The position numbers and the translations under genes were made by a program. Under the pieces are notes generated by a model. The model was not told the DNA's origin, made no database searches, and saw nothing but the letters and a program-made list of their open reading frames with translations. A stretch of DNA of 43,002 nucleotides from a virus (taxonomy: Duplodnaviria; Heunggongvirae; Uroviricota; Caudoviricetes), in IMG/VR virus record IMGVR_UViG_2740892012_000013, positions 1 to 43,002 of that record, one strand, 5' to 3'. This document shows positions 9,710 through 12,094 of this stretch, one piece after another (positions within the stretch are counted from its first letter, which is position 1; each line of letters begins with the position of its first letter).

Positions 9710-9943
9710 TCAGAAGAACCCTGCCTTGTCGTTGATGTACTCCGCGTGAGTCTGGATATCACGCAGGCATTTACTCACACCGACGATGTAGCAGAACATG
9801 GTGGTCAGTTCCGCCGCCGCGCCCGATACGTCGTGCCCGTCTTCCTGTAACTGGTTCAGCAGATTCATCAGCAGTGAGTGCTCCGTCAGGCCGAGAACAC
9901 CCGACGGCGAGTGAATCAGGCTGCGGTAGCCGGGCTTCAGCGG
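9710..9943. repeat. Right arm of ~234-bp near-identical inverted repeat (3' end of Ant gene)
   Basis: Reverse complement of 8211-8444. Confidence 0.8.
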
Positions 9944-10648
9944 ATAACCATAACATTTTGTCTGTGTTTTAATTGCCTCACGAAGCGCATCTAACATCTT
10001 GACTGCCACTTCATCATTCTCTGATGCAGATCCAGCAGGGAGATACTCCCCTTCAAGCGGAACCCGAGCAACAAGAGACAACGCTTCGGCGAATTGATCT
10101 TCATCAATTTCTTTGTACGAACAGCCAAAATGAGATTTCAGTGACGACCACATGGTGATCATCGCCTTAGCCTGTTTTTCTTTTGGCAGAGACTGACCGC
10201 GACTCATGACGAGTTGTTTAATGGCTTCCTGCTGTTCAGTGGTGATTTTACCCGGCAACGCCTTTTTAGCTTTGCGTGGGTTAACTACATGGCCTTTAGT
10301 CCAGTAATCGTAGAGCACATCGTCACACTCTTCCTGATACTGGATTACCTTGTCGCGGATTTCAGGGCGTACTTTGTTTGGACTGATGCTGTTCAACCAA
10401 GCTGCCAATTTTCGTAAAGCCATACAAATCATGGCTTGCACCCCACCGGCAGAAGGTATGGTGATTTCCACCATACCCTTCGAGAAGCGTTGAGAAATCT
10501 TCTTATGTTGAGATTTCCAGTCTAGCCCCATTCCCTCAACGATAGGTTTCATTGGGGTATACGGTTCACCGTTGTGATTGACAACATAAAGCTCTGCGCC
10601 GTGGAATGGCACGTTGATAGTAGATACCGCTGTTGCTATACTCGTCAT
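9710..10648 (-). CDS. Antirepressor (AntA/Ant-like N-terminal domain plus shared ORF6C-like C-terminal domain)
   Basis: N-terminus INVPFHGAELYVVNHNGEPYTPMKPIVEGMGLDWKSQHKKI is AntA-like; SD AGGAAT; second gene of an arc-ant style operon; C-terminus shared with 7749-8444. Confidence 0.75.
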   Translation of the reverse strand: MTSIATAVSTINVPFHGAELYVVNHNGEPYTPMKPIVEGMGLDWKSQHKKISQRFSKGMVEITIPSAGGVQAMICMALRKLAAWLNSISPNKVRPEIRDKVIQYQEECDDVLYDYWTKGHVVNPRKAKKALPGKITTEQQEAIKQLVMSRGQSLPKEKQAKAMITMWSSLKSHFGCSYKEIDEDQFAEALSLVARVPLEGEYLPAGSASENDEVAVKMLDALREAIKTQTKCYGYPLKPGYRSLIHSPSGVLGLTEHSLLMNLLNQLQEDGHDVSGAAAELTTMFCYIVGVSKCLRDIQTHAEYINDKAGFF

Positions 10649-10720
10649 GTCGTTAATTCCTATACGTAGTTTTACGATACTGAAGCCCTGACGGTCTGGC
10701 CACCGTTGGGCTTCGCTGTT

Positions 10721-10888
10721 TTATGCCACGCTATTCTTCTCACCAGTGAGTCCATACACTTTCCTCAGCTGATAGATAATCTCTGTATTGAACTTTCGGC
10801 ATTCTTTTTCGCCATTTCTTTCAATAGCTAACTTCACATCGTCCGGAAAACGAACTCGTCGTTGACACATCTCTTTTGCTTTTTGCAT
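10721..10888 (-). CDS. Arc-like ribbon-helix-helix repressor
   Basis: ATG at 10888 with SD AGGGGA; MQKAKEMCQRRVRFPDDVKLAIERNGEKECRKFNTEIIYQL aligns with P22 Arc (FNLRWPREV...NGRSVNSEIYQRV, from memory); directly upstream of ant. Confidence 0.6.
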   Translation of the reverse strand: MQKAKEMCQRRVRFPDDVKLAIERNGEKECRKFNTEIIYQLRKVYGLTGEKNSVA

Positions 10889-10902
10889 TTCATATCCCCT
10901 TA

Positions 10903-10961
10903 GCCCCACGGTGGGGCAAAACAATTGTCACACCGTGCGTCATTGATGTCAAGCACACGGT
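10903..10961. promoter_or_regulatory. Divergent arc / mnt-like control region with palindromes (candidate RHH operators)
   Basis: GCCCCAC-G-GTGGGGC perfect palindrome (10903-10917) plus CACCGTG / CACGGTG elements in the 120-bp gap between divergent RHH genes. Confidence 0.45.
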
Positions 10962-11008
10962 GAGGCATACTTCAATCATTGCAAGTAACTCAATATTTGG
11001 TGAAGAAC

Positions 11009-11440
11009 ATGAGCAGAGAAGATCCACAACTAAGGATCAGACTTCCCGTTGAAGTAAAAGAAAAAATAGAAATTTCTGCAAAAGCCAATAAGCGATCAAT
11101 GAACGCTGAAATAGTACAACGTCTTGACACCAGCTTTCTGAAAGATATTCATGAAGATGACGTAATTTCTGCTTATGAAGCAAAAATTATTGCAAACAAT
11201 GCACGGCATGAAATATCAAATATTATTTTCAAAAGAACCTTTAATGAAATTAATAAGAAAATAACACTTGGACATACAAGTTTTTATATAAACCTTAATG
11301 ACCTTGAACTGGAATCACTTGCAGATAATGATTACCAGATCATCTTTGAAAAAACATTTAATAAGCTCAATGAACTAGGTTACATCATCTGTGAAAACTC
11401 ATGGGATGCAGATGGTTTTGGAATTGAAATACCTGAATAG
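11009..11440 (+). CDS. Mnt-like ribbon-helix-helix protein with ~90-aa C-terminal extension
   Basis: PQLRIRLPVEVKEKIEISAKANKRSMNAEIVQRL aligns closely with P22 Mnt (PHFNFRMPMEVREKLKFRAEANGRSMNSELLQIV, from memory); divergent from arc; AT-rich codon usage. Confidence 0.55.
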   Translation: MSREDPQLRIRLPVEVKEKIEISAKANKRSMNAEIVQRLDTSFLKDIHEDDVISAYEAKIIANNARHEISNIIFKRTFNEINKKITLGHTSFYINLNDLELESLADNDYQIIFEKTFNKLNELGYIICENSWDADGFGIEIPE

Positions 11441-11530
11441 GAAGAACAAAAGGCGTGTACATATTACACGTCTTTAATACAATTGAAAAACGCCACATTA
11501 CTGATGTATGTTACAACAAGGAGCGATATT

Positions 11531-12094
11531 TTGAAAACCATATCTATATTAAAGGTTGCATTAGGCGTCGCTATTATTTTGACTCTCTCAATATTGTTTT
11601 ATTTTTACCACAAAAAAAATGCTATTGCTCTTGATGGTCACGCGGCAAACTCATTTTTCTCAGAGTACATAGTGCCGCTATCAGGAAGCGGTATAACAAA
11701 TAAATATACTGACTATGACATCAAATATGGAATTGATGATGGGGAGACTATTGTATTACATGTAATCATTAAAAACCTAATGACAGTAAATAAAAATACA
11801 GACTTCAACGATAAAAATACAATACATCACAACAACAGCAAAACATTAATTTCTTATAGTAGCAACATCTATACGGATAAATACCTAAAATACATCTCAG
11901 AAGATACAATAAAAGCAACCAGCGAAAAGTTAAAAAACATATATTGTGCATCCGGCAGTTTTCACAAATTATCGCCGCAGGAGCGTTTATTCTACGAAGC
12001 AAGAAAACAACGTAAGTCAATAATATTACATTATTATGCTGATTCAGGGGAGTCACTCATATTTAATATTGGGGTTTCCCCTGAATCATGCTAA
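11531..12094 (+). CDS. Membrane-anchored protein at the SieA position (superinfection-exclusion candidate)
   Basis: TTG start 7 nt after strong SD AAGGAG; N-terminal TM helix (ISILKVALGVAIILTLSILFYFY); very AT-rich, Asn/Lys/Ile/Tyr-rich; sits between mnt-like gene and ejection proteins. Confidence 0.45.
   Translation: MKTISILKVALGVAIILTLSILFYFYHKKNAIALDGHAANSFFSEYIVPLSGSGITNKYTDYDIKYGIDDGETIVLHVIIKNLMTVNKNTDFNDKNTIHHNNSKTLISYSSNIYTDKYLKYISEDTIKATSEKLKNIYCASGSFHKLSPQERLFYEARKQRKSIILHYYADSGESLIFNIGVSPESC

Follow-up and report, generated by a model that had tools for sequence, protein, structure and literature searches.

A diverged P22 immI-type module with a long Mnt repressor and a chimeric antirepressor in an epsilon15-like prophage of Escherichia coli

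The immI region of phage P22 is a textbook system, and its two small repressors, Arc and Mnt, are models for ribbon-helix-helix (RHH) DNA recognition and for protein folding. immI has mostly been regarded as a peculiarity of P22-like phages, and the locus described here raises the question of whether a switch of the same type is present in a phage that is not P22-like. The locus lies at positions 9710-12094 of IMG/VR record IMGVR_UViG_2740892012_000013, the full 43 002 nucleotides of which are termed the window below; the window is an Escherichia coli prophage of the epsilon15/phiV10/TL-2011b type (genus Uetakevirus), making the host phage epsilon15-like and not P22-like. A sequence-only reading, made without database searches, had proposed an immI-like arrangement of a Mnt-like gene, an Arc-like gene, an antirepressor gene and a membrane-protein gene in the position of sieA. 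The data now assembled indicate that this region is probably a secondary immunity ('immI'-type) switch, which would time the production of antirepressor by the prophage. Judged by sequence comparison, homology to P22 immI extends to every gene of the module, which is a rewired version, and the variant in the window stands apart by its arrangement of three putative operator sites, its longer Mnt and its chimeric antirepressor.

All four open reading frames (ORFs) were found where the sequence-only reading had placed them: ant at 9710-10648 (- strand), the Arc-like gene at 10721-10888 (- strand), the Mnt-like gene at 11009-11440 (+ strand) and the membrane ORF at 11531-12094 (+ strand). Their order, orientations and genomic position match those of the annotated P22 record, and Mnt, Arc, the N-terminal two-thirds of Ant and the sar RNA are homologous to their P22 counterparts, which bears out the proposed arrangement. 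The late operon of the prophage is on the minus strand and terminates with internal-virion protein genes. The module is flanked on one side by the last of these, an internal-virion/ejection gene at 12106-15120 (- strand; phrog_342/16310), and on the other by the tailspike region, with the tailspike further down; immI in P22 occupies the same location, with ejection-protein and tailspike genes as its neighbours. The segment from 9500 to 12300 is 96% identical to Escherichia phage TL-2011b, and, of 5426 complete E. coli genomes, 36 have the segment from 10640 to 12110, in one chromosomal copy each. The module was not present in phiV10, where only a Bro-N gene occupies the same hot spot.

The gene diverging from the ant operon encodes a Mnt-type RHH repressor of 143 amino acids (aa), referred to here as Mnt-long. 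The protein matches Pfam Arc (1.1e-14), P22 Mnt by BLASTP (32% identity across all 83 P22 residues, E 3e-14) and PDB entry 1mnt (3.5e-7), and the RHH domain previously proposed for it was thereby recovered in a profile search. This domain comprises residues 1-46, in which the β-strand reads Q7-x-R9-x-R11-x-P13 (PQLRIRLP), and the first 13 residues, MSREDPQLRIRLP, are near-invariant in the family. The ant operon is headed by an Arc-type RHH repressor of 55 aa, for which the match is weaker than for Mnt or Ant yet consistent. BLASTP gave a gapless alignment with P22 Arc (33% identity, E 4e-5), in which M7, Q9, R13, P15, R31, N34 and E36 are conserved; the protein also matches phrog_228, 'Arc-like repressor' (3.4e-5), and, compared as family profiles, the protein and the RHH region of Mnt-long are in register (hhalign probability 85%, E 6e-6). 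Its β-strand is Q9-x-R11-x-R13-x-P15 (CQRRVRFP). On these three comparisons the Arc-like product was accepted as an RHH protein, and they lend modest support to its earlier description as an RHH repressor. The single Arc-like sequence searched against PDB gave TALE repeats and designed proteins as top matches; these were rejected as spurious, being sums of weak repeats.

The second gene of the operon encodes Ant, 312 aa, in which residues 12-121 form a P22_AR_N domain (Pfam 2.5e-45). Identity to P22 Ant is 40% over 217 aa (E 2e-38), the resemblance continuing through the middle region to approximately residue 217, and the claim that an antirepressor gene follows the Arc-like gene therefore holds. 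The C-terminus is not P22-like: Pfam did not detect P22_AR_C, and this end of the protein instead carries an SPC32H-Ant-type domain (phrog_450). Ant is therefore chimeric, with the C-terminal domain of the P22 protein replaced. A terminator-like hairpin with a T-run (9642-9659, - strand; a 7-bp stem with six GC pairs, then TGTTTTT) lies downstream of ant, which in P22 likewise has its own terminator according to the P22 annotation.

The spacer between arc and ant holds a sar-type antisense RNA, which was absent from the features listed in the sequence-only reading. Rfam family RF00262 was matched over its full length (1-68) at 10650-10717 on the + strand, with 45.2 bits, above the gathering score of 43; an Enterobacter relative gave a stronger match of 59.4 bits. 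The match fills the spacer, which is 72 nt in the window and 68 nt in P22, and is antisense to the ribosome-binding site of ant, which it covers. The RNA begins just within ant; its first hairpin has a UUCCU anti-Shine-Dalgarno loop, and its second is a terminator (10693-10712) that ends just short of the arc stop codon. The segment aligns to P22 sar with conservation of the terminator stem, GAAGCCC...GGGCTTC. A Psar-like promoter (TTGATA-17-TATACT, with an upstream TG) was predicted by consensus scan at 10614-10642 (+ strand), inside the 5' end of ant, 3 nt separating its -10 element from the start-codon complement of ant that follows. In related loci a TAnAnT hexamer is conserved, with CAT, that same complement, 3-7 nt after it, and Psar and tsar of P22 are placed equivalently. 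Covariation was assessed in 12 sequences, namely those of P22, the window and 10 related loci. Under the two-hairpin structure 90% of cells were paired, compared with 37-52% when the partners were slid by 1-3 columns, and 8 of the 18 pairs were changed on both sides, a number reached by one of 500 shuffles.

The 120 bp between the divergent arc and mnt genes constitute the control region and contain three 15-bp palindromes of the form GNCNCAC-N-GTGNGNC. With up to one mismatch allowed, the pattern GNCNCACNGTGNGNC has just three occurrences in 43 kb, and these are confined to the 64 bp from 10903 to 10966; the palindrome-rich stretch earlier noted between the RHH genes is therefore not a product of chance. 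The putative operators located by the pattern scan are site A (GCCCCACGGTGGGGC, GCCCCAC-G-GTGGGGC, with perfect 7-bp arms; 10903-10917), site B (GTCACACCGTGCGTC, (T)GTCACAC-C-GTGCGTC(A), near-invariant across genera; 10927-10941) and site C (AGCACACGGTGAGGC, AGCACAC-G-GTGAGGC; 10952-10966). A CACNGTG core is common to all three; by their arms, sites A and C (CCCCAC) belong together, and site B (GTCACAC/GACGCAC) is of a second kind. The P22 Mnt operator, Omnt, is AGGTCCACGGTGGACCT, and the core CCACGGTGG is common to Omnt and site A. P22, by comparison, has one Omnt and one unrelated Oarc.

The positions of these sites were compared with those of candidate promoters. A Pant-like promoter, TTGACA-17-(TGt)GACAAT, was predicted by consensus scan at 10952-10924 (- strand); in 16 loci its -35 element is invariant and its -10 element is kept as GACAAT or GACACT. 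A Pmnt-like promoter, TTGATG-17-CATACT (10943-10971, + strand), was read from the sequence and its conservation, CATAAT being the form in most relatives. The -35 elements of the two overlap back to back, so that the predicted promoters share their -35 regions, whereas the P22 promoters overlap fully. Site A would lie at approximately +1 to +15 of the predicted Pant, which is the place of Omnt in P22, and at the start of Pant, a predicted one in the window, P22 has an operator and the window a Mnt-operator-like palindrome, both with the CCACGGTGG core. Site B falls inside the spacer and -10 element of the predicted Pant, the place of Oarc in P22, and site C inside the spacer and -10 element of the Pmnt-like promoter. 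The location of site C implies direct negative autoregulation of mnt, a feature which P22 lacks.

Conservation of the control region exceeds that of the genes on either side. Over 16 distinct loci from 12 genera, the 44 bp that begin at site B and reach the -10 element of Pmnt average 94% identity, while in the same loci the flanking coding sequences average 70% (arc) and 66% (mnt). This conservation supports the identification of the palindromes as operators. By position, the natural assignment would be of Mnt-long to sites A and C and of Arc to site B. Both repressors share the strand pattern Q-x-R-x-R-x-P, whereas in P22 the reading residues are H6/N8/R10 in Mnt and Q9/N11/R13 in Arc, residues with DNA-contact roles established in the Arc/Mnt literature. 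The shared Q-R-R strand fits the CACNGTG core present in every site, which suggests that the DNA specificities of Mnt-long and the Arc-like protein may overlap. Control of the module by LexA was considered and rejected, there being no LexA box in 9400-12300; the sole convincing box is at 5986-6001.

The C-terminal domain of Ant connects the module with other antirepressors of the same prophage. The final ~80 residues of Ant (233-312) are 42% identical (E 6e-16) to the product of an 85-aa ORF at 6023-6280 (+ strand), which by homology is an antirepressor of the LexA-controlled type, being 98% identical to phiV10 p24 and 88% identical to a gene of Salmonella phage SPC32H annotated 'ant: anti-repressor protein'. 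A perfect LexA box, CTGTATAAATATACAG (5986-6001, + strand), is situated just upstream. For LexA-controlled antirepressors in phages of the SPC32H/epsilon15/phiV10 type, a review (PMC7380047) cites Kim & Ryu (2013). The remainder of that system is also present in the window, as the prophage repressor (194 aa, 36789-37373) is identical (100%) to phiV10 p40. Compared with the SPC32H-type Ant, the immI copy of the domain is a paralogue fused behind P22_AR_N, with RHH repressors and an antisense RNA in place of LexA. A second large antirepressor, carrying Bro-N (7749-8444, + strand; Pfam), ends in the same domain as Ant, and directly upstream of it are Rfam matches to isrK (7516-7591, + strand; 72.3 bits) and to the C4 antisense RNA (7616-7701, + strand; 77.7 bits). 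This arrangement was likened to immI of P1/P7 (C4 plus ant) and to the Gifsy-1 isrK locus. It is separate from the P22-type module and has a different control logic, the two being linked by the shared C-terminal domain of the antirepressors and by an inverted repeat. This repeat, of 270 nt and 91% identity (arms 8176-8445 and 9709-9978), arises because the two antirepressor genes converge and the 3' ends of both encode the shared domain.

Three homologous domain copies, accompanied by a LexA box, by C4 and isrK matches and by the immI-type module, amount to one antirepressor domain under three kinds of control. Since the C-terminus of the immI-type Ant is paralogous to the phage's own antirepressor, the resident epsilon15-type repressor is its likely target. 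The simplest reading would be that one and the same repressor-binding domain reaches that repressor through three proteins, each under a control of its own.

A mechanism can be proposed from these data, with the roles of the P22 immI components taken as summarised in PMC11016777 and PMC2629481. As homology and conservation show, Mnt-long is transcribed rightward, and the Arc-type repressor followed by ant leftward, out of the shared 120-bp control region. By analogy with P22, Mnt-long in a lysogen would occupy site A at the start of Pant and site C within Pmnt, keeping arc-ant off and limiting its own synthesis. After infection, or on escape from repression, Pant would fire briefly, the accumulating Arc would then close it at site B inside the promoter, and sar RNA would block translation of ant. 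Ant itself would be expected, from homology, to inactivate the resident repressor through the paralogous C-terminal domain.

Several observations weigh against this scheme or against parts of it. The Arc-like protein had no match in Pfam or NCBIfam, and its profile searched against PDB recovered Arc only at E 0.03-0.07, amid spurious matches, for which reason its RHH status was drawn from the other comparisons. A P22-type Arc operator sequence was not found; a palindrome of a different type stands at the Oarc position, there is an extra site in Pmnt, and consequently Arc was assigned to site B by its position. In some Xenorhabdus and Mixta loci site A has the form of site B, which leaves the assignment of protein to site open and argues against a clean scheme of one protein for one site. 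The promoters are consensus matches and remain predictions: scanning the region gave four promoter-like sites, fewer than the 6.5 found in shuffles, so that the calls carry no significance on their own, and Pmnt scored 8/12, under the scan threshold. Site C in the window (AGCACACGGTGAGGC) and the -10 element of Pmnt (CATACT) are the most degenerate among the 16 loci, the family consensus being ACCCCACSGTGGGGC (ACCCCAC-S-GTGGGGC) for the former and CATAAT for the latter; this degeneracy may make for weaker autoregulation or weaker expression of mnt in the lineage of the window. Lastly, the targeting of the resident repressor by Ant is proposed from paralogy.

Mnt-long is 60 aa longer than P22 Mnt (143 versus 83 aa), as the sequence-only reading had remarked, and the C-terminal extension is real. 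An AlphaFold2 model built with 39 sequences had a mean predicted local distance difference test score (pLDDT) of 80 and showed two RHH helices, a long helix at 55-87 and a β-α-β-β unit at 91-140; the extra α/β domain spans approximately residues 88-143, and pLDDT was 81-92 over residues 60-140. The long helix aligns to the C-terminal helix of P22 Mnt, which forms the tetramer in P22. Residues G88, F92, L99, L101, T116, L120, L123, Y125 and F137 of the C-terminal domain are invariant in the family, and no recognisable fold relative of the extension was found. An exhaustive HMMER search with residues 51-143 yielded only 17 representative clusters among 1.84 billion proteins. Nearly all of these are ~140-150 aa long and align at an unchanged position, even the distant members start with an RHH motif, and in this search the domain was never found apart from the RHH architecture. 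Because the matches keep both the RHH region and the position of the domain, Mnt-long is regarded as a fixed two-domain protein and not as a recent fusion; the label 'fusion protein' given to it previously is misleading for an architecture found in 262 clusters.

Such a domain, conserved, well folded in the model and confined to this architecture, invites a sensing role. The domain would bind a signal or a partner and free Pant on cue, and the module would then be an induction input and not only a timer of establishment or immunity. The prophage also has separate LexA- and RNA-controlled antirepressors with the same effector domain, from which it follows that each copy may answer a different input. 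The domain could, however, equally be a second oligomerisation surface bridging the three operators, and we know of no inducer of P22 Mnt. A sensing function is considered rather unlikely.

Three further observations concern Mnt-long and its relatives. The PHROG label 'partition protein ATPase' attached to some relatives was rejected as a mis-annotation, as there is neither an ATPase domain nor a ParA partner. A Pf-type filamentous Pseudomonas phage, PfAC03 (OR801191), encodes at 3511-3888 an Arc-like protein with 40% identity to residues 1-125 of Mnt-long, the alignment reaching into part of the extra C-terminal region. In TL-2011b (NC_019445) an extra G at ~7541-7545 (equivalent to 11033-11036 of the window) changes AAGG to AAGGG at codon 9-10 of mnt and shifts the frame. 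The annotation of that phage begins the long mnt gene 89 nt late, so that the RHH domain is lost, and the extra base is either a homopolymer sequencing error or the mark of a genuinely mnt-defective phage.

The Mnt-long family extends far beyond this prophage. The 143-aa form (phrog_1388) comprises 262 clusters with ~58-69% identity, named automatically as 'Arc family DNA-binding protein', and is carried by Citrobacter, Enterobacter, Salmonella, Klebsiella, Yersinia, Proteus, Hafnia, Cronobacter, Xenorhabdus and others, making at least 12 genera; one Yersinia pestis cluster is present on 557 contigs. At every locus examined Mnt-long lies 118-129 bp from a divergent Arc-like gene of 55-58 aa. 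The gap from arc to the antirepressor gene is mostly 72-73 nt (39-98 nt over all loci), and this spacer contains a sar-like promoter and hairpins. The proteins of the window are members of this family (~143-150 aa), with identities of 58-69% for Mnt-long and 62-81% for the Arc-like protein, and the PHROG 1388 relatives have the same spacings, operators and sar-like hairpins.

The surroundings of the cassette are variable. It is carried within a lambda-like tail cluster in Y. pestis, by other siphoviruses in Enterobacter and Salmonella and by a podovirus in the window, and the antirepressors include Bro-N proteins with or without P22_AR_C, KilA-N proteins and P22_AR_N proteins. The relatives within siphovirus tail-gene clusters drive Bro-N/P22_AR_C or KilA-N antirepressors, and none has the membrane ORFan found in the window. 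These data indicate that Mnt-long, its operators, Arc and sar travel as a portable regulatory cassette in which the antirepressor can be swapped. As far as we found, the PHROG 1388 family has automatic annotation only and is apparently uncharacterised. In one Y. pestis prophage, a 143-aa Mnt-long, a 55-aa Arc and a Bro-N antirepressor are located together within the lambda-like tail gene cluster.

The remaining gene of the locus (11531-12094, + strand) is AT-rich and encodes a single-pass membrane protein of 187 aa with two cysteines (phrog_8033). It is a real gene: translation starts at a TTG codon 7 nt past an AAGGAG Shine-Dalgarno sequence, 187 sense codons are maintained in DNA of 33% GC, RefSeq also calls the gene, and a metagenomic variant has an in-frame deletion of seven codons. 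The 11001-12000 block as a whole has a GC content of 32.6%, compared with ~47% in its surroundings. Hydropathy indicates one N-terminal hydrophobic segment (residues 4-22; a helix at 6-28 in the AlphaFold2 model), followed by a hydrophilic remainder of ~160 aa. That model, made without an alignment, had a mean pLDDT of 59, too uncertain a fold for any conclusion, and a BFVD search with it gave no match with E <0.3.

The sequence-only reading had likened this product to SieA of P22. The positional part of the comparison is exact, as the gene shares the strand of mnt and lies in the interval from mnt to the last ejection-protein gene, with which it converges at a distance of 11 bp, the equivalent gap to gene 16 in P22 being 22 bp. 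The protein itself did not resemble SieA: BLASTP found no similarity (E 0.34), and SieA is polytopic, with at least three hydrophobic segments against one here. No relative was found in Pfam, NCBIfam, PADLOC, PDB or BFVD, and among PHROGs it matches only phrog_8033, which is lineage-specific. Among 5.8 billion, its only relatives fell into four clusters, each at least 93% identical, and TL-2011b is the only carrier among 50 697 phage records. NCBIfam and PADLOC, searched with every protein of the module, gave no usable match; a ThsB match of the membrane protein (E 0.005) was discarded as driven by composition and below any threshold. What is SieA-like about the gene is thus its position, since it is a lineage-confined ORFan with no similarity to SieA and a different topology. 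It is best described as a probable lineage-specific add-on, a moron occupying the place of sieA.

To be a functional equivalent of SieA in superinfection exclusion, the protein would have to be expressed in the lysogen, under a promoter of its own, and to block, from the inner membrane, the entry of DNA from related phages. The gene has the orientation of sieA as well as its position, convergent with the last ejection gene and co-directional with mnt; its strong Shine-Dalgarno sequence is preceded by promoter-like sites, it is AT-rich with the character of a moron, and its product is anchored in the membrane by its N-terminus. Exclusion proteins with a single-pass anchor exist elsewhere among phages, HK97 gp15 and Sie2009 being examples. 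Set against this are the lack of similarity to SieA or to entries in the databases named above, the dissimilar topology, and an ORFan status in which dN/dS, at 0.4-0.8, comes from 5-8 changes, too few to interpret or to show selection; moreover, other prophages have either no gene or unrelated cargo in the slot after Mnt-long. We therefore regard an exclusion function as tentative and, on balance, rather doubtful.

The same slot bears on another explanation, in which Mnt-long and the membrane protein form a toxin-antitoxin or abortive-infection pair, with Mnt-long as an RHH antitoxin whose C-terminal domain neutralises a membrane toxin. An RHH protein with a C-terminal partner-binding domain, encoded upstream of a toxin, is a common type II layout; Mnt-long has weak FitA-like and RHH_5 matches, and the two genes point the same way across a gap of 90 bp, both being low in GC. 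Synteny argues strongly in the other direction. The same C-terminal domain is found in the 262 clusters, in many genera, where Mnt-long is always paired with a 55-aa Arc and an antirepressor and lacks the membrane gene, which was not present in the other cassette-family members examined; relatives of the membrane gene are near-identical only, and a hairpin, CGTGTACATATTACACG (11454-11470; scored as a - strand terminator, its + strand T-tail being weak), separates it from mnt. No conserved pairing of the RHH gene with the membrane gene downstream was seen, and the toxin-antitoxin explanation was rejected as highly improbable. Mnt-long is accordingly treated as the repressor of an immI-type switch.

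A more far-reaching interpretation would set the locus apart from P22 logic as a new control cassette. Repressors with the same reading strand would compete or cooperate on three sites, the extra domain of Mnt-long would act as a sensor or bridge, and each prophage would plug in an antirepressor that fits; in the window this would be one of three inputs (LexA, C4/isrK and Mnt/Arc/sar), and the ORFan would be a new exclusion protein. Taken as a whole this is speculative, and we think it improbable in comparison with a diverged switch of the P22 type. The value of the present findings is incremental, as the basic picture of immI is unchanged. They extend immI, in a diverged form that is widespread and mobile, to podovirus- and siphovirus-type prophages of many Enterobacterales, pathogens included. 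The loci offer natural experiments in how near-identical RHH reading strands distinguish related sites and in how antirepressor payloads are swapped to suit the resident repressor. They also suggest that a prophage may integrate three signals via one antirepressor domain, which bears on prophage induction in pathogenic E. coli.

Two minor features of the prophage were recorded outside the module. A transfer RNA gene (73.3 bits) is located at 27164-27237 (+ strand), among genes of the portal/terminase region. The arms of the 270-nt inverted repeat bracket a 1263-bp segment of variable cargo, in which an ORF at 8881-9393 gave a sub-threshold match to the YafO toxin (Pfam E 9.5e-4; 19.7 bits, the cutoff being 25), its counterpart in TL-2011b being annotated by RefSeq as a YafO-family toxin. 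The other cargo consists of a phrog_5933 gene (8568-8894) and a gene for a small membrane-anchored protein (9403-9636). The inverted repeat could drive inversion or exchange of this cargo, and in another E. coli carrier a different cargo was found between the repeats.

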